A DNA stretch of 64,000 bases from an uncultured delta proteobacterium (GCA_963815115.1 CAWFFN010000008.1:224001-288000); one strand, 5' to 3'; shown: positions 1 through 14,799, counted from the stretch's first letter. A program made the numbers and translations. The notes: generated by a model from the letters alone, not told the origin.

Positions 1-658
1 AGGGTCCGCCTGAGTCGCCGTGGCAGGTATCCTGCTGCCAGGGTCGAGCGCGCCAGCAGAGCGAACGGGCCAGATCGCCGGGCCAGACCCCGAGAGCTGC
101 CATGCGTCTGGGACACCGCTTGAGACGTACGAAGCCCATCTCTTTGAGGCCCACGTTTCCCACCTCGTCCTGACCGTAGCCGACGATCGTGCCAACCGTC
201 CGCGGACGTGGCGTCCGACCGGCCAGTGGCACCGGATTGACACCCGCGACGGGTGCCTCGAGCAGGAGCATCGCGAGGTCGGCGACAGGAAAGCGAAACT
301 CAGGATGGATGGCGTAGCCGATGACGGCGTAGGAGGTTCTCGTGGTGGGAGTTGGGAAAAAGACGGCGTCGATCGCCACTGGGCCGTCAGCAACACAGTG
401 CGCTGCCGTAAGGATCACAGACGGGCTGACCAGCGTGCCGGTACAGAGACCGTAGTTCATCGGGTTCTGGATGCTGAGGCCGGCGACTGCGGGATACGCC
501 GCCGTGAAAACGCCGTTGATGATCTGGGGGACGGCGTGTTCGGCGAGATCTCGCTGGGCTTGCGGGACGGCGCGCAGCGCCGGATCCGGCAGCATTTGCC
601 ACGCGTTCGCGTGCGCGTATCCCAGTGTAGTGACGAGGACTAACGACAGCAGTCGCAT
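1..658 (-). CDS. Secreted trypsin-like (S1) serine protease, 3' end beyond the window edge
   Basis: Not in the ORF track; translated by hand from ATG at 658. It shows a signal peptide MRLLSLVLVTTLGYAHA, an IING mature-like N-terminus, CTGTLVSPSVILTAAHC, ADLAML and QDTCHGDSGGP (full catalytic triad), with a GAGAGGG RBS upstream. Confidence 0.93.
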   Translation of the reverse strand, partial: MRLLSLVLVTTLGYAHANAWQMLPDPALRAVPQAQRDLAEHAVPQIINGVFTAAYPAVAGLSIQNPMNYGLCTGTLVSPSVILTAAHCVADGPVAIDAVFFPTPTTRTSYAVIGYAIHPEFRFPVADLAMLLLEAPVAGVNPVPLAGRTPRPRTVGTIVGYGQDEVGNVGLKEMGFVRLKRCPRRMAALGVWPGDLARSLCWRARPWQQDTCHGDSGGP

Positions 659-1119
659 TGACACGAACTTCCCTCTCTTCGAACGGTTGCCGGCGTGACC
701 CCCATTGGCCGCGTTGGGCGCCCGGCTGGAGCGCCTGCTAGAGACGCCGGCTCCGTGCCGCGATGTGTCACGCCGCTCGCTGCCGACGCACAAAGATACA
801 GCGTCGCCTGGCGATACAGCCCGCCCGTGCAGCGTTTCTGGGCTACTAGGTGGTTCTGCTACCGCGCCTGGTCGGAGGTATTCGGGCGCGGATCGCTCGC
901 GCTTGCCGCGGAGTTCGGCGTCGAGCCATCCGTGCTTGTGCTCGCGCTCGCGGAGCTCGGGGGGAGGGCGAATCCTCGAGCTCAGCTTGATTGTTAACGA
1001 GGGTCTTCCAAGGTCCTACCAGGAGCGCGGCGACTCTTGAGATCCGCGCAGCCTGACGTGGGTCGTGGGACTATACGGAGCCATCCAATTCAAGTTAGAT
1101 GGTGACTAAAGGAGGACTC

Positions 1120-1443
1120 GTGTCCGATCACGACGAATCTCCACGAGGGGAGGGCCGTCAAGCTGCCCTTCAGGGAAGGGTCGACTTCCACCAAGCGCTA
1201 CTAAAGGAATACCGCACCCGCGGGTATCAGATTGTCCTTGCGCACGCAGGGCTGACTGTCAGCGCAGGTAGGTATGCCGTCGATCGTCCGGGACAGGAGT
1301 CGCTCGCGATCGCGTGTGCCATGACGGTCGTGACAGCCTTCCTGTACAACTGGCTCTCGCGTCTGAAGGAGAAATCGGACGGTCATCGAGATGACGCCAT
1401 GGGGCTGTACAAGCGTTTGGGGGTTGCGCTAGCTAGAGCGTGA
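1120..1443 (+). CDS. Small hypothetical protein with one or two hydrophobic segments
   Basis: GGAGG at 1111-1115 precedes an in-frame GTG at 1120. The ORF lies in a lower-GC patch. Confidence 0.5.
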   Translation: MSDHDESPRGEGRQAALQGRVDFHQALLKEYRTRGYQIVLAHAGLTVSAGRYAVDRPGQESLAIACAMTVVTAFLYNWLSRLKEKSDGHRDDAMGLYKRLGVALARA

Positions 1444-1629
1444 TTCTGAGCACCAGCATTCACGGCACCGCCTTTGGGGTCCGCTCGTCTGGTTCCCGTG
1501 GGCAGCCCTTATAGGTCTTTGGATTTGGATATTGGGTGCAAACGTTCGAACGCTCTGTGCCCTCGTCAAGTAACGCCATCATGGTAGAGTCCGCCAGCGC
1601 GACTCGTGCGCCGGCATACGGCTGCCGGC

Positions 1630-2409
1630 CTAGCGTGGGACGCGGGCGCGCGAGACTCGATGCCCGCGGCGGTCTCGCGCGGAGGTAGTGGCCCCGCTAC
1701 GCCGGTCGTCGAGCTGATCCGTATCGCGCAACTGCTCGGCCGCACGCCCGAAGCGCACTTGGAGCTCCGAGTCCTCTTCGAGGCGCCCGAGGTAGCTCTC
1801 TCCCCCATCGATGGCCGAGGCGGCGATCTCGTCCGCCAGCATCTCGATACTGATGCAGAACACGTGATCGGCTGCCCACCGGGTGCCGAGATATCCCAAC
1901 CAGTGATAGGGCCGCGTCCGCTTGGGGTACACTTGGAGATGTCGGCGATGGCGACCGCGGGCATACTCCCAGGCGATGCAGCGGTCGCCGTAGTGCACCA
2001 CCATCTGCGGCTGCGCCAGATGGACGAGCTTGTGCCGCCACTGCTGTTGCAGGAGCACGATCTGCTCGTCGGTGTACCGCATGACTTCGCGCATATACGT
2101 CGCGGCTCGCTTGCTCGTCGCTCCTCTCCTCGTCTCGCCGGCGTAGAGCGCGCCCAAGAGATCGATGGTGGCGAAGCAATGGATGAGCGCCGGAAAGTCC
2201 ACGTGTCGCCCTAGGTCAACCTCGGCGCCGCACGCTCCGCACGACACGGATTTCCGTAGGCAATGCGCAACGGCCGTCCGTAGCTCGGCCGCGTGTCTCT
2301 GCAGCATGAGCCGCGCCATCTCGAGCAACGCCCGCTCATCTTCGAAGGGCCCTAGCGTGGGCACTGCGCGCCGATCTCCCGCCGCCCGCGCGCCTCGACC
2401 ACCTGTCAT
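1630..2409 (-). CDS. Hypothetical protein with a HEPN-like Rx4H motif (start uncertain)
   Basis: Protein-like composition, a helical IDLLGALY segment followed by WRHKLVH, and a CxxC (CGAC). Confidence 0.6.
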   Translation of the reverse strand: MTGGRGARAAGDRRAVPTLGPFEDERALLEMARLMLQRHAAELRTAVAHCLRKSVSCGACGAEVDLGRHVDFPALIHCFATIDLLGALYAGETRRGATSKRAATYMREVMRYTDEQIVLLQQQWRHKLVHLAQPQMVVHYGDRCIAWEYARGRHRRHLQVYPKRTRPYHWLGYLGTRWAADHVFCISIEMLADEIAASAIDGGESYLGRLEEDSELQVRFGRAAEQLRDTDQLDDRRSGATTSARDRRGHRVSRARVPR

Positions 2410-2526
2410 GACGGCATGCTAGCCGAGTACACTGGGCCCTGCAACGAGCGCTGACGGTGCGGCGAATCAACGCGCGGGGTGGGCGCTGCCGCCGCACCGC
2501 TTCTTCTGGCGCGGCCGGGGTATCTC

Positions 2527-2613
2527 CCCCTTCGGAGCTCCCTTTGGCGCGCGGGGATTGCGTCGGATAAGGCCTTTTCCGTCACCTTTCACGAAAAGGG
2601 CGTTCATGGCGCC
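2527..2613 (+). repeat. 87-bp dispersed element, copy 1
   Basis: Identical to 9975-10061 (CCCCTTCGGAGCTCCC...GTTCATGGCGCC). Confidence 0.95.
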
Positions 2614-2747
2614 CATGTCCCCGACGACGTGATCGCGGCGATGCGGTGAGTGCAGAGTACCGCAGGATCCGGATTGTGCCGCTGCTCGAGCCACCGCCGG
2701 CGAAACTGCGGTCGTCGGAACCTGCGCGCGGTGATAGACGGAGCGCC

Positions 2748-3306
2748 GTGGTCGATGCGCCCGAGCCGCTCACGGACGAGGCGCTGGAGAAGGTCCTCGT
2801 TCGCGGCCTGCAACCCGGACGGGTGACGCTGATCGAGTACAACCCGACATGGCCAGCGGCCTCCGGACCCACCGTGCCCGCATCGAGCAGGCCCTCGGCG
2901 ACCGGATCCGCCTGATCGAGCACATCGGATCGACCGCGGTTCCCGGGCTGGCGGCCAAACCGATCATCGACGTCGTGGTGGCGGTGGACGACCCGACGAC
3001 GAGGGCTCCTACCTCGACGACCTGGTGAACGCCGGGTACGGCGTGCGGGTCAGGGAGCCGGGCCACCGATGCCTGCGGTTCACCGAGGGCGAGCCCGCCA
3101 ACGTCCACTGCTATGCCCCCCGGGTCCGTCGAGATACGCCGCTACCTGGCGCTGCGCGACCGTCTGCGTGCCACGCCGACGAGCGCGCCTGGTACGAGGC
3201 CACGAAACGTGAGCTCGCGCAGCGGGAATGGAAGGACGTGAACCACTACGCCGAGGCCAAGGGGCCGGTCATCCGGGCAATCCTGGAGCGCGCCCGCTGT
3301 GACTGA
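2748..3306 (+). pseudogene. GrpB family (UPF0157) nucleotidyltransferase-like protein, frameshifted
   Basis: YNPTWP, IEHIGSTAVPGLAAKPIIDV, NVHC, YLALRDRLR and YAEAKGPVI are spread over different frames, with about four single-base indels. These may be sequencing errors. Confidence 0.85.
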
Positions 3307-3527
3307 TCCACCGGGACAGGGCACTCGGCGGGCTGCAAGTTCGTAGCGCCGACTCGTTCCCAAGCGACCGATCACCGCCGACTGAGCGTCGCCTGGTCCC
3401 GATTCCCTGAATCCTCCGGAAGGTGGACCCCTGCATCCACCCTCGCGGCCCGTGCGTAGGGTCCATGAAATGGTTGCCGAACCGGCCGAATCCCGGCCGA
3501 AAATCCCGGGCAGCCCGGAGGAGTCCC

Positions 3528-4211
3528 ATGATGACCATTCGTTCCGAGAGTAGCAGGTGGCTGGCCCGTGCCGCGGTGGTCGCGGCGATCGCGGTCGCAC
3601 GCGTGAGCAGCGCACAGGAGCTCGATCAGAAGCAGTTCAACCTGTTCCCGGACCCATCGGTCGTGCGATGCCTGGCCGCGTTCCCCGACGATCCGTCGCG
3701 CCCGCCGTCGGCGAGCGTCACGGTCAAGCGCGGCAAGCTCAACGACCGCCTCGACATCACGCTGCGTAACATCAAGCCCGGGCTCGCCTTCGACATGTTC
3801 ACCGTCGAGCACAGCAAGTTCCTCGCCAACGGGACCGTCGATCCCGCCTTCGTCGCCCGGAACAAGAGCTTCGGCCTCGCCTGGTACCAGTCGGACCTCG
3901 AGGTAAAGAACGACCACCGCAACGTGACCACGATCCAGACCATCCTCGTCGACCAGATCTTCGGGTTCGACCCCGTCGTCGGGCTCGATCCGACCAACAC
4001 CTTCCACGTCGGCTTCTGGTTCAACGACCCGCAGGTTCCCTTCGACCTCGGGTGCGAGCCCGGCGCGGCGACGCCCACCGTGACTCCGTTTAACGGCGAG
4101 CACCACGCCGGCCCGCTCGCCATGATCAGCCTCCCCGAGGCGGCGACCGATCTCGGCCCGCTCTGCCTCAACCCCGATCTGTCCAGCGATCCGGTCCACT
4201 GCAATCCGTGA
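3528..4211 (+). CDS. Secreted hypothetical protein
   Basis: GGAGGAG RBS, signal peptide ending VSSA-Q, GC3-rich codon usage and Cys residues. Confidence 0.8.
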   Translation: MMTIRSESSRWLARAAVVAAIAVARVSSAQELDQKQFNLFPDPSVVRCLAAFPDDPSRPPSASVTVKRGKLNDRLDITLRNIKPGLAFDMFTVEHSKFLANGTVDPAFVARNKSFGLAWYQSDLEVKNDHRNVTTIQTILVDQIFGFDPVVGLDPTNTFHVGFWFNDPQVPFDLGCEPGAATPTVTPFNGEHHAGPLAMISLPEAATDLGPLCLNPDLSSDPVHCNP

Positions 4212-4356
4212 GTGGCCACCCATCAGGCCCGGGCTGCCCCGGGTGTTTCAGTCGAGCGCGTGGGCCCCGGGCCCGCGCGCTCGCGCGTTTCGGGTCCAGC
4301 CGTTCGGCGACCACGGGGGGCCGCCACGCGAGCGGTAGCATTCGTCGCCGGACTTC

Positions 4357-4405
4357 GGCCTTATCCGACGCAATCCCCGCGCGCCAAAGGGAGCTCCGAA
4401 GGGGG
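4357..4405 (-). repeat. Partial (49-bp) inverted copy of the dispersed element
   Basis: Its reverse complement equals 2526-2574. Confidence 0.93.
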
Positions 4406-4990
4406 CGCCGCACCCCACGCGCTGCGCGCTTCGGCGGGGAGTTCTACTGGACCGCGGACCTGGTCCGAAGCATCGAGGCCTTGCGGCAGAATCTACTCGA
4501 CGCGCGCGCGCTCCTCGGTTGGCTGCAGGCCGAGGACCCGCGCCCGGTCGGTGTCATGGGGCTCAGTCTCGGCGGCGCGCTGACCCTCGCGCACACCTGC
4601 CTGGAGCCCCGCTTCGCGTTTTCGATCCCGCTGATCGCACACATGGACCTCGCCGCGATGGTGGCAGACGCGCCCGTCCTGCGCAGCATGCGGCACGAGC
4701 TACGCCAGTTCGGCTGGGGTGTCGACGAGTTCGGGCGCTTCGTCCGCGACATCGGCTGGTACGACCTGGCGCCGAGGCTGCCGCCCGACCGCATCTACAT
4801 GTTCGCGGCATCGGACGACCGCTTGTTCGACCCGGGCATCGTGGAGGAAATGTGGCGGCGCTGGGGGCGGCCGGCGATCCGTTGGTACCCCGGAAGTCAC
4901 ATGGGCTTCCTCGTGCGCTTCCCCGACGCGATCGCGGAAGCGCGGCGCTTCATCGATCAGTCATCGGACCGCGGGGGCCGGGGCGATTGA
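4406..4990 (+). pseudogene. 5'-truncated alpha/beta hydrolase (ABHD18/DUF2048-like)
   Basis: GLSLGG nucleophile elbow, ASDDR acid and WYPGSH histidine motif. The hydrolase-like frame begins right at the repeat, with no N-terminal half. Confidence 0.75.
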
Positions 4991-6893
4991 CAGCAGACGC
5001 GTCACCGTCGCCCGGCGTGGCGGGCAGCACTATGGACCGCGCATTGCCGGCATTCCGTCGGTCCGACAGGATGCTGTCGTAGGTCACGACGGCGCCGCCG
5101 CCGGTCGCGGCCAGCGATGTGACGGCGTCATTGGCCGTCCCGGTCACGAGCGGAAATCCCTCGAGGTCGACCACTGAACCCGCCCGCGTGACCCGCGCGC
5201 CGTAGACGTCCGTGCCGTTCGTGGCCGCCTCCCGGCCGTCCGTCCACACGACGAGATACTCCGCACCCGTGAAGGCCGCCGCGATTCCGGTCTTCGCGCC
5301 CGGCGCGCTGGATACCACGAACTCGTCGCCGTCGGCCGAGAGATCTGCATGACGAAGCTGGCCTCGGATGACGGCCTTCTCCACCCAGAGGATGAGGTAC
5401 GATTCGCCGTCCGAAACGAGAGCGTGTGGCTCATCGTTGTATCGCCGGTCACTTTCCATCGGCCAGGGGACTGGCAGCACGGGCCGCGGCGGTAGAGCCA
5501 CGGCAGGTCCAGGCGACGCCGGTCCCGTCGCGGGCGCGATTGCGGCGCTCCACGCGGTGGGCTTCCAGCGGTTGCTGTAGGGAGCCGGGCTGCCAGGGGG
5601 CGGGAAATGCTCCCAGTCGGTGGAGGACCAGAGCACGCCGAATCCCCCCGCGCCCGGTACGACGAGGCCGTGCTGATCGCCGTGGGCCGCAATGGTGACG
5701 GGCGACGTCGCGCCGGACGAGAGGCGCGCTGCCCCCAGCACATAGCCGAGCTTCGAGCAGCTTCCGCAGCTCGTGAAGAGATCGATGACGATTTCCGACC
5801 AGAGCACGAAGTAGGCGCCGTCCTGGTAGGCCACCTGCGCGCCCGCGAACCAGCGGTCTCCCCCCTCGGATTCCAGCGACTTCAGCAACACGGGCTGTTC
5901 CAACGCAGTCCCGACCGCCGAGAGGCGAAGAGTGTAGAGCTCGACCGGTAAATCGGGCCCCGGCGTGGTGGCTGCCCGGAAGCCGACGCCATCAGAGGTG
6001 AGCCCTGCAATATCGGGCGGAAATACGAGCTCTCCCGGGTCGATCCAGGAGCCGTCCGGCCCGACGCGGCGCCAATGCTCGCCACCACTGTCGTGCCACC
6101 GCAACAGCGCACCGCCCGGTGCCGCCGTAGCGACCACCGCCCGCGAATCAGGTGCGGCGACAGGTGGGAGGACTTCCGGGCTGACGCTCGGCGCCCCCGC
6201 CGTCGTCGTGGTGGTCGACGTGGTGGTGGTCGTGGTCGTCGCTGGTGTCTCGAGCGCAGCGACGAACGCAGCCACGCAGACGTCGTCGATGATCGCCCCC
6301 ACCTCCGCCGCGTTGCCGAGCGGCGGCAGGCAGCGGTTCCGCGACTTCACCTCGAGCTTCGTGAAGCAGCCTTTGGTCGGATCGGCGCCCCCGTCGAACT
6401 TCGCTTTCGTCTTGTCGAGGCAGCCGTCGGCGTTCGGATCGTTCGGCTTCCCGGGGGTCTCCGCCTTCCGGTGGCACGTGAGCACGCTCCGCAGCTTCTG
6501 GGCCGCACACATCTTCTTCCCGGCGTTGCACTTGCTCTGGGTGAGTGGGGCCGGGTCGATCGCGCCGACGACCTGCTGCACGCACACGTCAACCAGCATC
6601 GCGACGAACGCGGTATCGTCGAACGTCACGCAGTCGTTGCGCGTCTTGGTCTCAAGCTTCCCGAAGCAGGTATCCGGCCCGACGACACCGAACTTGGCCC
6701 GCGCCTTGTCGATGCAGGCGCCGGCGTTCGGGTCCGCCGTCTTCTCGCATTTCAGCAGTGAGTCGACTGCCTTCGAGACACACTCGTTCTTGCCGGCCAG
6801 GCACTTGGTCTGCGGTCCCGCGGCGACGTCGGTCACGGCGGCCGTGAGCACGACCAGGACGCCGAATGCAACGAGGTTCAGGTGCTTCGTCAT
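4950..6893 (-). CDS. Secreted modular protein: duplicated Cys-rich helical domain, poly-Thr linker, C-terminal beta-repeat domain
   Basis: Signal peptide MTKHLNLVAFGVLVV, two KC.AGK..C...C..K...KF...CF.KLE.K units, TTTTTTTSTTTTT, then DGxxYLxxW / TDVYGARV repeats. Confidence 0.8.
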   Translation of the reverse strand: MTKHLNLVAFGVLVVLTAAVTDVAAGPQTKCLAGKNECVSKAVDSLLKCEKTADPNAGACIDKARAKFGVVGPDTCFGKLETKTRNDCVTFDDTAFVAMLVDVCVQQVVGAIDPAPLTQSKCNAGKKMCAAQKLRSVLTCHRKAETPGKPNDPNADGCLDKTKAKFDGGADPTKGCFTKLEVKSRNRCLPPLGNAAEVGAIIDDVCVAAFVAALETPATTTTTTTSTTTTTAGAPSVSPEVLPPVAAPDSRAVVATAAPGGALLRWHDSGGEHWRRVGPDGSWIDPGELVFPPDIAGLTSDGVGFRAATTPGPDLPVELYTLRLSAVGTALEQPVLLKSLESEGGDRWFAGAQVAYQDGAYFVLWSEIVIDLFTSCGSCSKLGYVLGAARLSSGATSPVTIAAHGDQHGLVVPGAGGFGVLWSSTDWEHFPPPGSPAPYSNRWKPTAWSAAIAPATGPASPGPAVALPPRPVLPVPWPMESDRRYNDEPHALVSDGESYLILWVEKAVIRGQLRHADLSADGDEFVVSSAPGAKTGIAAAFTGAEYLVVWTDGREAATNGTDVYGARVTRAGSVVDLEGFPLVTGTANDAVTSLAATGGGAVVTYDSILSDRRNAGNARSIVLPATPGDGDASAVNRPGPRGPMTDR

Positions 6894-7366
6894 GACCCGT
6901 CTCCGCGCTGCCCGCGGTTGGTCGTCGACCCTTGTATCGTCTCGGGACGCGCGAGGCGCGTCGCCGGTAGCCCGAGTCCTCGTCCAGCGCGCTCCCGCCG
7001 ATCGCAGCCCCCGATCGACGGACATCGCGAGACTCGAGCGCAAGGCGCGTGCCACACACTCGTCACGGAGGCAATGTGGCTCTTCCGGAGACCGCGTGGA
7101 CCTCGACTCTCGTCCGTCGGAATCGAGCGGGGCGTCTTCCCAAGATCGGGAAGCGACTCGCGCTGGCATAGTCCTCAGTGCTAGCCTGACATCTTTCACG
7201 GTGGGCTAGACCGTCGCATACGGCCGGCCCTCCAGTCAGGGGAAGATAACGGTGGGTGAGGACAAGCCGTCGAGCACATGGGCTACCTATGGCGAGTGCC
7301 CTGCTGAAGCCTCCCGCTGCGAGCCCCGGCGCGCGGCGCGGGACAGGCTTGGGACGCGTCCGGCGG

Positions 7367-8680
7367 TCATGGGTGGCGTGACGTCCACGCGGGGTCATCG
7401 GTCACGAGCTGCGTGAGCCAGGTCAGCAGAGTCGTCTCGTTCTCACTGAAGTTCGCCGGCGTGAACAGGGTGGTGTGCGTCGACCCGGGGAAGAAGAAGT
7501 AGTGGAAGCGGGCGGTCGGATCGAGCCGGTCCGCTGCCATGGTCACTAGCGCGCTCTGGAACGCCGGGCCGGAGAGCCCGGAGCCCGAGCTGATCGTCTC
7601 GTCTTGCAACGAGGAGATGAGCGCTAGGCGGGAGCCTGGGTACGTGCTCGCGAGTCCCGAGAAGAACAGGGACATATCGGTGCGACAGGGTGCGCCGCAC
7701 ACCGGGTCGGTGACGCGGTCGAGCCGCCAGCTCGCGAACGCGGGCGCATAGGACACCAATGGCGCCGAGGACGGCTCCAGGAACGGGCCCGAGTCGTCGA
7801 CCATCTCGACGGTCGCCGCGGGCCACCGTCCGCGGACGTCCGGGTAGTTCAACGCCGCGCCTAACCCGCCTGCCGATGAGCCGGCGATCACGACGCGATC
7901 GGCACCCGGGAACGTCGGCGCGAGCCGCGCCAGGTAGGCGAGCACGTTCGCGTGCCCGACGTGATAAAACATCCTCGTCGTCTGGCCGTCAAGGCTCGTG
8001 TAGGTGGCGACGTTCGTGCCGGCATGGAAGTCTCCGGTGCAGTACGGGACTATGACGAAGCTCCAGTCCTTAAATGGGTTCGCGGACATAGTTCGATCGA
8101 ACACAGTGCCGGTCAGATACTGAACGAACGCCGCAAACTGTGCTTGCCCAAACGGCCCGTGGACGGCCGTGTTCAGCACGAAGCACGTCAGGTAGTCCCA
8201 GCACCCGCCGCCGCCGTTCAGGAACACGAGGACGTGGTCCGACATCGCCGACGGGTTCAGGCCGATGCCCGTCGCCGAGCCGTCGTCGCAGGCGGAGTCC
8301 GGAAAATCGACCCATGTCCACGTATTGGTGGGCGCGACAATCGCTGAACCACCGGGGAGGGTCGTGCTGATGGTGGACGTCGTCGTCGTCGTCGAGCTTG
8401 TCGTCGTTGTTGTGGTAGGACACACGGGAGTACCCGTCTCCTTGCAGCTAGCTGCGCAGGATGAGGTAACCTGACTATGACATTGATGCTTGGCCTTTCT
8501 CATGCACCTACGAGCCTTACCACGTGGTGAAGTAGGACATGAGGCGACCGCAGCATCAACACAATCAATGACAGCACCGGAACAGGTCGATGCACACTCA
8601 TGGCAGGCCTTGGGAGTCTTGGCCATCGAACTCCCAATCGGGATAAGGACAAGCCACAATACACTCAGGAAATATCTCAT
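7367..8680 (-). CDS. Pectin acetylesterase (Notum-like) family hydrolase with N-terminal Cys-rich domain and Thr linker
   Basis: CDDGS, VFLNGGGGCWD, VPYCTGDFHAG, GSSAGG, DDSG and a C-terminal His, plus a signal peptide. Confidence 0.85.
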   Translation of the reverse strand: MRYFLSVLWLVLIPIGSSMAKTPKACHECASTCSGAVIDCVDAAVASCPTSPRGKARRCMRKAKHQCHSQVTSSCAASCKETGTPVCPTTTTTTSSTTTTTSTISTTLPGGSAIVAPTNTWTWVDFPDSACDDGSATGIGLNPSAMSDHVLVFLNGGGGCWDYLTCFVLNTAVHGPFGQAQFAAFVQYLTGTVFDRTMSANPFKDWSFVIVPYCTGDFHAGTNVATYTSLDGQTTRMFYHVGHANVLAYLARLAPTFPGADRVVIAGSSAGGLGAALNYPDVRGRWPAATVEMVDDSGPFLEPSSAPLVSYAPAFASWRLDRVTDPVCGAPCRTDMSLFFSGLASTYPGSRLALISSLQDETISSGSGLSGPAFQSALVTMAADRLDPTARFHYFFFPGSTHTTLFTPANFSENETTLLTWLTQLVTDDPAWTSRHP

Positions 8681-8701
8681 CGGTCTCGCCTTGTAGCGAC
8701 C

Positions 8702-9244
8702 TCACTGATGGTTCACTCTCTTGTAGTCGCGCACGAACTCCTCGATTGAGGCTATGTAGCCGTCGCGCAGCAGGGAAACAATGGAGACGGAGGGACCCAC
8801 ATCCGAGCCCAGCGTCAGCCACGTTATGGCACGAGTATACATTGCTTCATCACTCTTCTGTGGGATCAACTGCCAAAACATTAGATGCCAGAGTACGATC
8901 GAACCCGAAGTCATCCACGTTTGGTCCCTCGTTCGGAGGAAGTCAGCACCCACGTCTAGGCAGAGACAAGGATAAGTATGTGGATTATCAGTCGGTGGGA
9001 GTACTTTGATCCCTGCAGCCCTTAGTCGGCTTTCGACATCTGCTCTGTAAGTTGACTCGGGAATATCACTTATCCCGCTCACACTTATGCAAACGGACAT
9101 CGCATTGATCCCCTTGAGTGACGTCGCCTGAGTTCTGACCTGTGCCGGATCGGGTCGTTGCGCTAGTGCAGTACCTGTGGAGGCAGAAGACACCAGGAGG
9201 ATGAGGAGCAGGGACTTCAATGGTAAGTGTTTCATAGGGTTCAC
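8702..9244 (-). CDS. Secreted hypothetical protein (low GC)
   Basis: Signal peptide ending TALA-Q and protein-like composition, collinear with the downstream gene. Confidence 0.65.
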   Translation of the reverse strand: MNPMKHLPLKSLLLILLVSSASTGTALAQRPDPAQVRTQATSLKGINAMSVCISVSGISDIPESTYRADVESRLRAAGIKVLPPTDNPHTYPCLCLDVGADFLRTRDQTWMTSGSIVLWHLMFWQLIPQKSDEAMYTRAITWLTLGSDVGPSVSIVSLLRDGYIASIEEFVRDYKRVNHQ

Positions 9245-9532
9245 TTGTCATCCCGTACTGCTCGCACAAGACTTGGGCCAAACTTGTTGCCAATTCTCTG
9301 CGGGAGGCCACCTGGCACTAACGCGACTCCCCATGCGTCCCTAGCATCCACGAGTATGAGATTGTTATTGTCATAGTGACGGGGATCCGGAGGGGCCAAG
9401 CAGGCCTCTGCCCCTGGGAAATTGAGGCACTGGCACGTCATGGTGGTGGACGACCAGAAGCTGTTGGGCCCAGGATGCGCCACCTACTAGATGGGCCATC
9501 AGTGCTATTACCAAGAGCCGTACCAAGCGCAT
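9241..9532 (-). pseudogene. Small secreted protein, apparently frameshifted
   Basis: AAGGAG RBS, ATG at 9532 and signal peptide MRLVRLLVIALMAHLVGGASWA. A second frame ends at 9241, overlapping the next start (GTGA). Confidence 0.4.
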
Positions 9533-9974
9533 GTCCGGGTCTCCTTCGTCAGATCGAGCGTCAGCGGGATGAGCGGGGGGCAGAGCCGACAGCGTCCAGG
9601 TCAGTTGGCCGCGTGGACGGCCCCCCATCCCCTGCGCTGGTCAGGTGGGAGGTGATCAGAGGGATAGCTAGGCAGTTCTGGCCTCGGCAGTCCTCCTCCC
9701 TAGTTTGTCACACTCCACCAGCAGGTATCCCCATCCCATGCGGGGGAGGCTTCAGTCAAGCAAAAGTGGATGGCGGGCGCCGGAACCACTGACGACAGCG
9801 GCGCCTATGGCTACTCCGGGCCTCGTGCCCTGGCCCGGCATCGCCTTGGTCAATTCCGGGCCGGTCCAGCCGGGGTCCCTCCTGCCTAAGAACGGCCTCA
9901 GCCACGTGCAGGCTCTAGCAACGAGCCCGAGGGCCTTCAGCGACCGAGTTGCTGGAAGAGGTACAGCCTCGCGG

Positions 9975-10061
9975 CCCCTTCGGAGCTCCCTTTGGCGCGC
10001 GGGGATTGCGTCGGATAAGGCCTTTTCCGTCACCTTTCACGAAAAGGGCGTTCATGGCGCC
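9975..10061 (+). repeat. 87-bp dispersed element, copy 3
   Basis: Identical to 2527-2613. Confidence 0.95.
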
Positions 10062-10336
10062 TAATCCGCGACGACAAGGACGCCGTGTTCCGCACCTACT
10101 TCATCAACAACCGCGGCGACGAGCAGATGGGGAGCACCTGGAACTACCTGGACATCACGCCGCTCGGGCGCCAGGAGGAGTGGGAGGATTCGCCCAAGGG
10201 CTACCCGCAGAGCGCGCCGTGCAAGTGGTGGAACCGGCACGACGCCTACGGCGACGCGCAGTCATCTCAATGGCCGACCGTCGTCGATCGCAGCCTCGTG
10301 CTCCTCGAGGGTGAGAAGGAAGGCAAGGCCACGTAA
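10062..10336 (+). pseudogene. C-terminal fragment of a DUF899 (thioredoxin-like) protein
   Basis: IRDDKDAVFRTYFINNRGDEQMGSTWNYLDITPLGRQEEWEDSP matches the DUF899 C-terminus and begins immediately after the repeat. Confidence 0.8.
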
Positions 10337-10482
10337 CGCAGACGAGATTCTTGTGCGGTCCACGCGTGCAACGTGTCCGCGCGGGGGACGTCCGGGTAAT
10401 ACTGCGAGGCGATGGAGCGAAAGGGCCTCGGCGACCCGCTTCTCATCCTCGAGCCGGGCGAGAGCTGGCACTACGCCAAGCC

Positions 10483-12813
10483 CTAGGCCGCGGCGTCCTT
10501 CGCCGGCCGCACGGCGAGGAAGCGCGGCCGCACCACCACCAGCGCCGCCGGCAGCGTGACCAGCGCCGTTGCCGCGCTGGTCGCCATCCAGAGCGCGAGC
10601 AGCACGGCCATCTCGCCGACGAAGCGCAGCTCGGTCAGCGTGAAGCAGAGGACGCCCGCGGTCATGGCGATGGCGGTGAACGCGACGGTGCGGCCCGCGC
10701 CGGCGATCGCCTCGCGCACGGCGTCGTCGAGCGCCATGCCCGCGCCGGTGCGCTCCTGGACCCGGCTCAGGATGTAGATGCCGTAGTCGATCCCGAAGCC
10801 GACGCCGACGGCGATCACGGGGAGGGTGTCGAGGTCGAGCCCGATGCCGCGCGCCGCCATGTAGCCGTTCACCACGGCGTTGGCGAGGACGAGCGGCAGA
10901 ATCAGGAGCAGCGCGGCCGCGAGCGAGCGGTAGGTCAGGATCGTCACGACGAGGATGACGCCGAAGGCCGCCACCGTCATCCGGGCGTCGCTCCGCAGGA
11001 TCTCGTCGTACACCGCCGCCATGACGCCGATGAGGCCGCCCGCGAGGCGGAAGTGCGCGCCCTCCAGCGGATGCGCGGCGATGTAGCGCTGGGCGGCGGC
11101 CACGACGCTGCGCACCGTCTGCACGCTGTGATCGCTACAGAAGAAGGTGAGCTGGCCGATCCGGAAGTCCGGGGTGAAGAAGCGCGCGCTGGTGCTCGGG
11201 GGGATGAACCCCCAGTAGGTGAAGAAGGTCTCCGCCACCTCGCGCTCGGTGGACGGGATCACGCCCCACTTGGGCTCGAGCTCGTTGAAGCGCTCGCGCA
11301 TGCCCATCATGATGTCGACCGGCGAGATGCTGTAGCCCACCATCGGCAGGCGCTCGAGCTCGCGCTGGAATCCTTCCATCGCCCGGAGGAGCGCCGGGTG
11401 GTAGAGCGCGCGCGGCGCGTCGCCCTCGACGATGACCACGAACGGCTCGCTGCCGCCGAACCGCTCCTGCACCGCGCGGTGGCTGCGGTTGAACTCGGAG
11501 TCGGGCGCCAGGATGCGCGACGCGGAGCCGGGATCACCGATCTCGAGCCGCGGGATCAGCCCGGCCCCGATCGCCGCCAGGGCCCCCGAGGCGAGGAGCG
11601 CGACCCAGCGGCCGCGCGGGCCGGTCACCGCCGCCGCGAGGCGCCGGCAGCCGCGGGCCAGCAGGCCGGCGTCGCGCGCCCGGATCGTCTCCACCTCGGG
11701 CGCGCGCAGGTGGCGATAGACGATCGGGTTCAGCAGCAGCTCGGTCACGATCAGCGACAGCAGCCAGAGCGTCGCCGTGAACGCGAGGGCGCGCAGGGCC
11801 GGGATGGCGACGATGGCGATGGCGAGGACGCCGAGCGCGTCGGTCATGATGCCGGCGATCGTCGGGGCGGCGAGCCGGGTGAAGGAGCGCTGCACCGCGT
11901 CCTCCTTCGCGACGCCGGCGGCCAGCTCCTCGTAATAGCGGTCGTGCATCTGCGCCGAGTGGCTCACCGCGCGGGCGGTGATGAGGAACGGGATCACGAG
12001 CGTCAGCGGATTGAGCGCGAAGCCGGAGAGCTGGACCAGCCCGAAGCCCCAGATGGCGGCGAGTCCGCCGGAGATGGTCGGCCGCAGCGCCCCGCGCCAG
12101 TCGCGGAAGTAGCGGTAGAGCAGGACCCAGGTCAGCACCACGGCGCCGGCGAACGCCAGCAGCACCTGCCACTGCAGCGCCAGGATCCACCCGTTCTGGC
12201 GTGGCGGCCCCGCCACCGAGACGGTGGCGCGCTCGTCCGCCAGGGGGAGGATGGTCTCGTTCACCGCCGCGAAGAGGCGCCGCGCGTCGAGGCGGTGCTC
12301 CGCGAAGCCGGCGCGGATGACGGCCGCGCGCTCGTCGAGCGACACCAGGTTGCCCAGGATGTAGCCCGACGCCAGCACCTGGTGCTCGATCTGCTTCGCC
12401 TCCTCGCCGCTGGTCACCGGACCCGACATCACGGGATCCCCGGTCATGCGGCCGCCGCTCTGCACCTGGATCACGCGGGTGAAGCGGCTCGCCAGGGAGT
12501 CGATCTGGTCGTGGTTCACGCCCGGGAGGCGGTCGACCGCCTCGGTGGCGCGGAAGATCGTCGTCAGGATCTCGGGCGTGAAGATCGTTCCCGAGCGCGC
12601 CTCGATCATGACCGTGAGGACGTTCGCCTCCCCGAAGTTCTCGTGGAAGCGGTTGTGCACCTCCATGAAGGGATGCCCCTGCGGGAGGAGGTCGCCGGGA
12701 TGGAAGTCGAGCTCCAGCCGTGCCGCGAACACGGCGAACACCAGGGTCACCGCGAGGACGGCGGCGACCACCAGGCGTCCGTGCGCGACGAGCCAGGCGG
12801 CGAGGCGGGCCAT
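10483..12813 (-). CDS. MMPL/RND family transporter
   Basis: 776 aa with two-fold internal symmetry of TM and periplasmic halves, and a GFGIDYGIY motif. Confidence 0.92.
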   Translation of the reverse strand: MARLAAWLVAHGRLVVAAVLAVTLVFAVFAARLELDFHPGDLLPQGHPFMEVHNRFHENFGEANVLTVMIEARSGTIFTPEILTTIFRATEAVDRLPGVNHDQIDSLASRFTRVIQVQSGGRMTGDPVMSGPVTSGEEAKQIEHQVLASGYILGNLVSLDERAAVIRAGFAEHRLDARRLFAAVNETILPLADERATVSVAGPPRQNGWILALQWQVLLAFAGAVVLTWVLLYRYFRDWRGALRPTISGGLAAIWGFGLVQLSGFALNPLTLVIPFLITARAVSHSAQMHDRYYEELAAGVAKEDAVQRSFTRLAAPTIAGIMTDALGVLAIAIVAIPALRALAFTATLWLLSLIVTELLLNPIVYRHLRAPEVETIRARDAGLLARGCRRLAAAVTGPRGRWVALLASGALAAIGAGLIPRLEIGDPGSASRILAPDSEFNRSHRAVQERFGGSEPFVVIVEGDAPRALYHPALLRAMEGFQRELERLPMVGYSISPVDIMMGMRERFNELEPKWGVIPSTEREVAETFFTYWGFIPPSTSARFFTPDFRIGQLTFFCSDHSVQTVRSVVAAAQRYIAAHPLEGAHFRLAGGLIGVMAAVYDEILRSDARMTVAAFGVILVVTILTYRSLAAALLLILPLVLANAVVNGYMAARGIGLDLDTLPVIAVGVGFGIDYGIYILSRVQERTGAGMALDDAVREAIAGAGRTVAFTAIAMTAGVLCFTLTELRFVGEMAVLLALWMATSAATALVTLPAALVVVRPRFLAVRPAKDAAA

Positions 12814-12907
12814 GTCGGTTCGCTAGCACCCGCGCGGCACGACCGGCAGCGCGCGACGGTGCCGCCGGGCACCGGGCATGCGGCGGGCCGGCCGGCGGAT
12901 GCCGGAG

Positions 12908-13878
<971 letters not shown>

Positions 13879-13882
<4 letters not shown>

Positions 13883-14799
13883 TGCACGACTCCGGCGTAG
13901 ATGTCCATGACGCCGCGGAGGAAGTCGAGCGCGTCGGCATGCTTGCGCTGGAAGGAGTTGCGTCCGATGATCGAGCCGAAGCCGCCGCCGTCGCGGATGG
14001 CGCGGATCTCGTCCATCATCGTCGAGGTCTCCTTGGCCTCGCCGCCCGAGAAGATGACGATGCGGCGGCCGGCGAACGCGCTCTGCACCACGTGCCTCAC
14101 GCGCTCGGTCGCCGTCCCGACCGGAATCTTCTCCTTCTCGTAGACCTTCTTGGCGGCGTCCTGCTCGATGTGCGCCGTGGGCAGCTTCACCTTGATGACG
14201 TGGGCGCCGAGCTGCGCCGCGATCTGGGCCGCATAGGCGACCACGTCGATGGCCGTCTCGCCTTCCTTGGAGATGCCGGCGCCGCGCGGATACGACCAGA
14301 CCACCACCGCGAGACCCTTGCGCTTCGCCTCCTGGGCGAGGTCGCGCAGCTCCTGGAGCATCACGTTGCGCAGCGACGAGGCGGGATAGATGGTGAACCC
14401 GATGGCCGCGCAGCCCAGCCGGAGCGCCTCGTCGACGCTGCCGGTGAGCGCGGAGCAGGGCTCGCCCTTCGACAGCGAGTCCGAGTTGTTGAGCTTCAAA
14501 ATGAGCGGGATGTCACCGGCGAACTCCGCGGCCCCGGCCTCGAGGAAGCCGAGCGGCGCGGCGTAGGCGTTGCAGCCCGCGCCGATGCCGAGCTCGAAGT
14601 GATAGCGCGGGTCGTAGCCGGCGGGGTTGGGCGCGAAGGAACGCGCCGGACCGTGCTCGAAGCCCTGGTCGACGGGCAGGATCACCATGCGCCCCGTGCC
14701 GCCGAGGCGGCCGTGGTTCAGCATGCGGGCCAGGTTGGTGAGCGTGCCGGGGTTGTCGCTCCCGTACCAGCTCAGTATCTCGCGCACTCGCTCTTTCAT
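13879..14799 (-). CDS. fbaB: Class I fructose-bisphosphate aldolase (DhnA family)
   Basis: [18 protein letters not shown], Schiff-base IKVK and [20 protein letters not shown] precedes ATG 14799. Confidence 0.95.

Follow-up and report, generated by a model that had tools for sequence, protein, structure and literature searches.

A 64,000-nt stretch of DNA from an uncultured delta proteobacterium (G000:C8:224001-288000, hereafter the window) contains a short repeat that recurs next to truncated genes, which raises the question of what kind of element marks such junctions. The source genome (G000; 6.9 Mb, 70% GC) is a metagenome-assembled genome (MAG) of 12 contigs with an estimated contamination of 2.98%. 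The original prediction had read the repeat, present as two direct copies and an inverted partial copy, as a non-autonomous element or recombination site of a system lacking terminal inverted repeats, of the IS110, HUH, or serine-recombinase type. Here, we show by sequence comparison that it belongs to a repeat family, which we named E, with a constant place behind Y2 (HUH) transposase genes, which probably makes E the end on the oriIS side (right end) of a rolling-circle insertion sequence (IS) of the IS91 family. The window repeat itself is probably a miniature, transposase-less derivative, ~95 nt in length, of an IS91-family right end native to this Binatia lineage. The HUH part of the proposed system stands, as does the IS110 part in a different role, since E is the landing site of IS110-family elements, while nothing points to a serine recombinase.

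Extent and orientation of the window copies

The two direct copies are identical at 87/87 positions (2527-2613 and 9975-10061, 7448 nt apart), just as had been predicted, and a search of their own genome recovered both full copies at E = 1.6e-39. The inverted partial copy was confirmed as well, with 100% identity to positions 1-48(49) of the 87-mer at 4357-4405. Alignment with relatives indicates that the element extends ~8-9 nt beyond position 87, to ~2621 and ~10068, and these terminal ~8-9 nt differ between the copies. Copy 1, the putative miniature right end of 87 identical nt plus ~8 terminal nt, is located at 2527..2621 on the + strand with its outer (oriIS) terminus on the right side, and copy 3 is located at 9975..10068, likewise on the + strand and with its outer terminus on the right side; the IS orientation of both is that of the + strand. 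Each is directly followed by CGAC on the + strand, the reverse complement of GTCG, at 2622-2625 after copy 1 and at 10069-10072 after copy 3, where it stands at the start of the flank of a DUF899 gene fragment. Copy 2 (4357..4405, - strand) is inverted and retains only the inner 48-49 nt, with a break at 48/49 and with its inner edge adjoining a hydrolase gene fragment.

Element positions 40-45 of copies 1 and 3 read GATAAG (2566..2571 and 10014-10019, + strand), which comprises the left target and AG core of an IS110-family element described below and is unoccupied in both. Positions 46-74 form a subterminal imperfect hairpin, CCTTTTC(C)GT...ACGAAAAGG, at 2572..2600 and 10020-10048 (+ strand). 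Both this CCTTTTC...GAAAAGG stem and the GGAGCTCC palindrome that had been pointed out are present, and they do not fold more stably than shuffled sequence. The inspected flanks of all copies contain neither terminal inverted repeats nor a target-site duplication, and no IS110-family or Y2 transposase is encoded inside the window, both as originally stated. A proposed C-terminal gene remnant behind copy 1 (HVPDDVIAAMR) fared differently, as this reading overlaps the terminal bases of the element itself and nothing supports a gene remnant.

A family of related repeats

The window repeat represents one type of E, the 87-mer type, whose sister subfamily, E91, is 91 nt in length; family members overall span ~90-125 nt. 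In reverse orientation, the 87-mer is collinear with both E91 and diverged copies (alignment A2). The pairwise score of E91 against the reverse complement of the 87-mer is borderline, an E91 profile then recovers all five 87-type copies in that orientation, and a long copy in G002 contains the sub-modules of both. With a profile of the 16 members of A2, 33 copies were found in this genome at E < 1e-4, and a sequence-only covariance model (R1) found 37, with E91 occurring alone about 14 times. Matches to R1 are present in 13 of the 25 genomes of the taxonomic family (9/17 high-quality genomes and 6/14 genera), compared with only two of the 25 for the bare 87-mer. The original prediction was to be refuted if the repeat proved to be the ordinary end of a catalogued IS. 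The results go halfway towards this, as they agree with an IS end, of an IS91-family element for which no catalogued entry was found: Rfam returned only sub-threshold chance hits for window 1-14000 and for locus L011, and one conserved terminal pattern, searched in one genome per species, was found in a single contig and locus (L087), with ISfinder being outside the search.

The family shows no shared fold. RNAalifold yielded 0 consensus pairs, and single-strand folds of E copies were no better than those of shuffled sequences. Hairpins are present in both subfamilies (that of the 87-type at positions 46-74 and one closed by GGGG/CCCC in E91), again with no consensus pairing and with energies no better than shuffles. 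The start ATGAAC and an in-frame indel that distinguishes the E91 types had suggested that E is a piece of coding sequence; we rejected this reading, since conservation does not extend to the ATG and the lengths of the indels are not divisible by three.

E lies downstream of IS91-family transposase genes

A scan of the 121 open reading frames (ORFs) flanking E at 26 loci of relatives (26 of the 30 R1 loci, the four G000 loci being left out) identified Y2_Tnp hits at two loci, in G006 and G024, each time with ~170-180 nt between the end of the gene and a following E in opposite orientation. The G024 protein is intact, with 72.9 bits to Y2_Tnp and 63.9 bits to Zn_Tnp_IS91. The only Y2_Tnp gene of the source genome (C5:1419287-1420846), which is frameshifted, has the same arrangement, with an E at C5:1418990-1419079. 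Y2_Tnp is present in 19 of the 25 genomes of the taxonomic family. When R1 was run over 13 Y2 loci with its filters off, E was found on the expected side and strand at six of them with E <= 0.002 and, more weakly, at three others (E 0.036-0.12). Across the Y2 loci, E is positioned 170-370 nt past the tnpA stop codon on the opposite model strand. Comparison of the R1 and Y2_Tnp lists gave three further co-located pairs (G003:C8, G020:C5, and G020:C21). Overall, E lies just downstream of a Y2 transposase gene in constant relative orientation at no fewer than eight Y2 loci, i.e. at least 8, from six genomes and four genera.

The window copies are themselves collinear with the last ~95-110 nt of the Y2 elements and end in a common ...TTCAT.GCGCCTAT... 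block (alignment A3). In addition, a transposase remnant (C9:430435-430813) adjoins an E91 that carries an IS110-family insertion (IS_B, see below). The outer edge of E is sharp, and the tetranucleotide GT[CT][GC] stands at the outer terminus of 9 of 44 partly related copies (eight GTCG and one GTTC), including window copies 1 and 3. At its inner edge, read in IS orientation, E91 begins with CTTG, GTTG, or similar. IS91 is organized as terIS-(orf121)-tnpA-oriIS, and the final 82 bp of its right end suffice for transposition (PMC13181058). Given this layout, the fixed position and orientation of E downstream of Y2 tnpA genes argue that E is the oriIS-side, or right, end.

IS110-family elements use E as a target

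A fourth copy of the 87-mer, 100% identical to the others, is located 3.6 kb upstream of the window and is split by 1487 nt, with positions 4-45 at C8:220325-220366 and positions 44-87 at C8:221854-221897. The insert, IS_A, encodes a protein with matches to DEDD_Tnp_IS110 (81.2 bits) and Transposase_20 (84.3 bits). Its left end comprises ~237 nt of non-coding sequence and its right end ~23 nt. It lacks inverted repeats and carries AG on both sides, having inserted after position 45 at the AG core. A second copy of IS_A on C5, 99.3% identical to the first, likewise follows position 45 of an E that is only ~82% identical. As two IS_A copies thus occupy the same position of diverged E, IS_A has moved on its own, and the intact 87-mers are its unoccupied targets. 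The break in window copy 2, which keeps the inner 48 positions, differs from the position of the IS_A core.

A related element, IS_B, has 59% protein identity to IS_A and is present in four copies (C9: 341963, 352679, 366037, and 428602), always behind the inner edge of an E91. All four copies are behind type-1 E91 (4/9) and none are behind type-2 E91 (0/8), the type-2 copies being on C5. When the left ends of IS_A and IS_B are aligned, GATAAG of IS_A stands opposite TAACAAG of IS_B, each of which equals the left flank, and thus the left target, of its own element. Further on, CGTCCCAG of IS_A stands opposite CTTGGTAG of IS_B, each matching the right-end terminus plus core of its own element. 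IS_B relatives occur in G002 and G003, and in G003 both the flank and the guide read AACGAG. The left-target and left-donor guide-like matches therefore covary across IS_A, IS_B, and the two IS_B relatives, and the right target of IS_B is variable. In the IS110 group, bridge RNAs are encoded in the left end, and the guide for the left target reads in the same sense as the top strand of that target and the core (PMC11208160). Together, the insertions and the covariation of guide and target show, at the level of sequence, that IS110-family elements use E as a specific target.

Two other views of these loci were rejected. E91 might have been part of IS_B itself, except that the alignable part of the IS_A and IS_B left ends begins only past E91, solo E91 copies exist, and IS_B relatives are found behind partial or absent E. 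Likewise, locus L014 was at one point taken for an 87-like left half joined to the left end of IS_B, which was wrong, as L014 is a long intact E with both sub-modules. A few minor observations concern the same loci. Type-1 and type-2 E91 end in the same 13 nt, and one IS_B-bearing copy lies directly before a second E91 (C9:367600). Just to the left of the IS_A-split copy is a VapB-type antitoxin ORF (L009:7913-8164, C8:219913-220164). In G004, a ~1.6-kb repeat (L055:12279-13865 and L055:17766-19345) encodes a protein with HTH_29/HTH_28/HTH_23/HTH_32 matches and begins inside an E-like end; it appears to be a third kind of IS using the same ends.

Possible one-ended transposition and captured segments

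In IS91-type transposition, the Y2/HUH transposase nicks oriIS next to the target tetranucleotide and peels one strand towards terIS, which requires no inverted repeats and creates no target duplication (PMC13181058, PMC3189936). Termination often occurs at another ter-like tetranucleotide, either early, which produces short right-end miniatures, or late, which carries upstream host DNA along (PMC13181058, PMC3189936). For IS91, insertions have no target duplication, the target tetranucleotide adjoins oriIS, and one-ended transposition amounts to 1-14% (PMC13181058). For IS801, right-end fragments of 229, 360, and 679 nt have been trapped, each starting at a ter-like tetranucleotide (Bardaji et al. 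2011, PMC3189936), as have copies with 290-1431 nt of an upstream gene, all being products of one-ended transposition (PMC3189936).

Judging from their anatomy, the window junctions may have been made by one-ended rolling-circle events of this type. The DNA on the outer side of each copy would then be a disrupted target, such as the DUF899 tail at copy 3. This C-terminal fragment (10064..10333, + strand) covers profile positions 174-224 only and begins on the outer, tetranucleotide side of the copy, within 2 nt of where it had been predicted (10062). Three full-length DUF899 genes exist elsewhere in the genome, and intact DUF899 genes of other organisms, from soil runs, continue through the same ...CGCGAC... 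point as the copy 3 junction. On the inner side would be the remaining half of the target or, alternatively, DNA that was carried in, for instance the internal alpha/beta-hydrolase fragment on the inner side of copy 2 (4403..4956, + strand), a candidate for co-mobilized DNA. It is 93% identical to its counterpart in an intact gene (C9:1927751-1928304) and lacks the first ~150 and last ~12 codons of that gene. The abrupt start noted previously at 4406 is genuine, with similarity beginning at 4403.

Repeated insertion beside existing ends would be expected to build same-orientation arrays with captured segments between the ends. Such arrangements are present outside of the window. Ends are mostly in a single orientation along C5:1376-1419 kb and C9:318-430 kb, and also in G004. 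The exact gap between two E91 copies is occupied by C5:1400816-1402430, which duplicates C7:228686-230300 at 94% identity. Similarly, an E91 and a diverged E form the exact bounds of C5:1376418-1377484, which duplicates a C12 locus at 96% identity. Homologies of the segments to relatives end at the element borders. Since IS91-type one-ended transposition carries neighboring DNA along, it would account for both the truncated genes and the cassette-like arrays elsewhere. A clean empty site was not obtained for the diverged single copies, whose flanks map to different contigs in relatives. The window region is indeed accessory and mosaic, as had been suggested, since positions 1 to ~10,400 have no synteny in the four congeneric genomes, and two of these genomes share the MMPL gene that lies from 10,515 onwards.

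A broader reading, which we put forward tentatively, is that oriIS-only miniatures of ~95 nt serve as seams, such that any segment between two ends of the same orientation (ori-to-ori), or upstream of a single end, is copied and stacked into cassette-like arrays without an integrase. Bridge-RNA elements of the IS110 family would have evolved guides against this oriIS module, which they read on either strand and at differing positions, and they may hitch-hike on its rolling-circle mobilization; all four IS_B copies follow a single E91 subtype. If this three-part ecology of mobile DNA is true, the 7.4 kb between copies 1 and 3 would be one mobilizable unit. The original description of these 7.4 kb as a cargo bounded by direct copies is accordingly possible in the form of an ori-to-ori unit, but was not demonstrated, as neither a 2613/10062 join nor a circle was present in short contigs.

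Support for the junctions in soil metagenomes

Parts of window 1800-5200 occur in 21 soil-metagenome runs, and the four with the largest shares (X1-X4) were compared with window 1-12000, in all cases as Logan contigs. A 151-nt contig from X3 covers 2524-2674 without a difference; it includes only 3 nt to the left of copy 1 and thus bridges the right junction only. Other contigs match the window flanks at 99-100%. Loose ends at 2571, 2620, and 10018 correspond to the junctions of the IS_A-split copy, and a joint from 4290 to 10009 (side 21) fits the C9 paralogue of the gene at 3411-4285. One contig joins the DNA to the right of ~2625 to other sequence that is not in this genome; a 16-nt piece of this alternative left flank has no exact match there. 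The X1-X4 contigs contained no 2613/10062 join, circle, or inversion between copies 1 and 2, which at this depth is no evidence of absence. As a separate observation, an X3 contig at window 2576 keeps element positions 50-95 behind unrelated low-GC sequence (break at 49/50), so that the 87-type element is broken repeatedly at 48/49-49/50, namely here and in copy 2.

Alternative explanations

Several results weigh against E being an IS91-family right end. Four of the 13 Y2 loci lack E at the expected place (one locus runs off a contig end, one has a truncated copy, one is on a short contig, and one is of another subfamily), and a second IS91 subfamily, in G007 and part of G020, is without E. 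The enrichment of GTCG/GTTC at the terminus, in only nine of the 44 copies, is modest (0-6 of 44 at other flank offsets), and the E91 subfamily shows no clear outer tetranucleotide. There is no conserved secondary structure in the family, so that covariation gives no confirmation of palindromes such as those reported at the oriIS of IS91. The sole IS91-family tnpA of the genome is frameshifted and the window has no transposase, which makes present-day mobility doubtful. The missing N-terminal half of DUF899, the break of copy 2 at 48/49, and a naked junction at 4956 are not individually explained, and the short Logan contigs contained neither circles nor excision products nor empty sites of the window copies. 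The presumed bridge RNAs could be traced only as far as their guides for the left target and the left donor; searches of the IS_A and IS_B ends found neither right-hand guides nor a convincing fold, and Rfam had no matching model for the IS_A region, where it gave sub-threshold chance hits only.

Could E instead be an intergenic repeat similar to repetitive extragenic palindromic (REP) sequences, a 'safe haven' targeted by IS110 elements, with its proximity to Y2 genes being incidental and the truncations arising via IS110 or homologous rearrangement between copies? IS110-family elements do target conserved intergenic repeats (ISPpu10, 10.64898/2026.03.19.712850; Durrant et al., PMC11208160), IS_A and IS_B both insert in E, and E copies are found at synteny breakpoints even when diverged. 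We nevertheless consider this unlikely, as E follows Y2_Tnp genes at a constant distance and in constant orientation across those eight or more loci, six genomes, and four genera, which is hard to ascribe to chance, rearrangement between copies would not yield sharp-ended copies at new sites, and the copy 2 break is not at the IS_A core. Moreover, REP sequences and bacterial interspersed mosaic elements consist of hundreds of short palindromic units with a REP-associated tyrosine transposase (RAYT), whereas E has only ~37 copies and is not palindromic; RAYT genes were not searched for. The same-orientation arrays and the segments bounded exactly by E would also suit a site-specific recombination site, attC-like or used by a tyrosine or serine recombinase, in integron-like arrays without an adjacent integrase. 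Two genes of the genome are of the integron-integrase class above the TIGR02249 cut-off, and one diverged E adjoins a Phage_integrase ORF. This is very unlikely, however, as E has no imperfect-hairpin fold (folds no better than shuffles and 0 RNAalifold pairs), neither intI has an E copy or repeat array nearby, and no recombinase is consistently adjacent to E. For an identity as integron attC sites or as a cluster of attC sites lacking an integrase (CALIN) specifically, a hairpin with paired R and L boxes and an array beside an integron integrase are both missing, and this candidate was rejected. Even less probable is a regulatory role, in which E would act in cis (as a promoter, leader, or terminator) or as a small RNA and would have been duplicated as a mere passenger of accessory DNA. 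Several diverged copies are indeed upstream of same-strand genes, and an ATG follows a purine-rich stretch near the outer end, but that ATG is not conserved, there is no Rfam match or consensus structure, the neighboring genes are unrelated, and the identical copies adjoin gene fragments rather than gene starts. Least probable of all is an origin of the junctions as chimeras of the assembly. Such chimeras classically form at repeats, and a MAG of 12 contigs with some estimated contamination invites the suspicion; yet the independent 151-nt X3 contig crosses the right junction of copy 1 without a difference, further contigs match the flanks, the loose ends are all explained by the IS_A-split copy, and junctions of this type are also found in other genomes.

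Comparison with known systems

The closest parallel to a miniature IS91-family right end is found in the IS801 miniatures of Pseudomonas syringae pv. phaseolicola, which are continuous right (ori)-end fragments of an IS91-family element starting at a ter-like tetranucleotide, have no transposase, inverted repeats, or target duplication, and can carry upstream gene fragments (PMC3189936). In comparison, the window units are ~91-96 nt, close to the 82-bp minimum of IS91, and E copies are multi-copy and near-identical, form same-orientation arrays in an uncultured Binatia lineage, and are known here from sequence alone. Being multi-copy and near-identical, they act like a stable family of miniatures and not like one-off products. 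IS91, IS1294, and ISCR elements share with the E-bearing elements the terIS-tnpA-oriIS order, a Y2/HUH transposase with an N-terminal zinc-binding domain, an oriIS downstream of tnpA, and, as proposed here, the mobilization of adjacent DNA upon failed termination (PMC13181058). Unlike these, E has a lineage-specific terminal sequence with no Rfam match, the tetranucleotide rule is only weakly visible (9/44), and the local transposase is decayed.

IS_A resembles IS621 and ISPpu10 in having a left end that is long and non-coding (~237 nt) and a right end that is short (~23 nt), in two successive left-end stretches, of which the first equals the left target plus core and the second, for the donor, matches the terminus of the right end plus core, and in the hairpin that adjoins its target (PMC11208160; 10.64898/2026.03.19.712850). 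Its core is AG, not the CT used in the IS621 analyses (PMC11208160). A narrow literature search found no report of an IS110-family element landing in an IS91-family oriIS end. IS4321/IS5075 and the IS1111-attC elements are DEDD-recombinase ISs without inverted repeats that take a fixed position and orientation inside a short sequence of another mobile element, which is reportedly the inverted repeats of the Tn21 family for the former and integron attC sites for the latter. For IS_A and IS_B, this target would be the oriIS end of an IS91-family element.

The basic kinds of element involved, IS91-family miniatures and IS110 targeting, have already been described, so that specialists should be only moderately surprised; the less familiar twist is that a miniature IS91-family right end would serve as the dedicated target of IS110-family elements. 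This provides a natural set of IS110-family elements whose guide-like stretches in the left end covary with their targets across three species and whose target is the end of another transposon, and thus a compact test case for the target rules of bridge RNAs and for parasitism between mobile elements. In uncultured soil bacteria, where short orphan IS91-type ends otherwise go unrecognized and gene fragments are miscalled, a known mechanism, rolling-circle and one-ended transposition, for a repeat at truncation junctions should help to annotate mosaic accessory regions.

Other features of the region

Between copies 1 and 2, a GrpB gene (2738..3303, + strand) is spread over two reading frames, with Pfam positions 8-57 and 56-159 in different frames, and it is likely a pseudogene. 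It is followed by a conserved hypothetical gene plus a hairpin and T-run (3411..4285, + strand), which has an 83% paralogue on C9 with an E copy just downstream there as well. The GC-rich hairpin and following T's (4228-4285) after the gene proper (3411-4211) are kept both in the C9 paralogue (L010) and in the congener G002 (L015), and the similarity of L010 and L015 to the window ends directly past them. The two integron-integrase-class genes mentioned above are located at G000:C9:616301-617218 and G000:C5:519851-520699 and score 431.7 and 389.3 bits, respectively, against the TIGR02249 cut-off of 265; no recognizable repeat array was found within about 20 kb of either. Lastly, G000:C5:233482-233987 and C5:235685-236190 form a local duplication of ~500 nt with 99% identity, which lies beside a diverged E at a synteny breakpoint.

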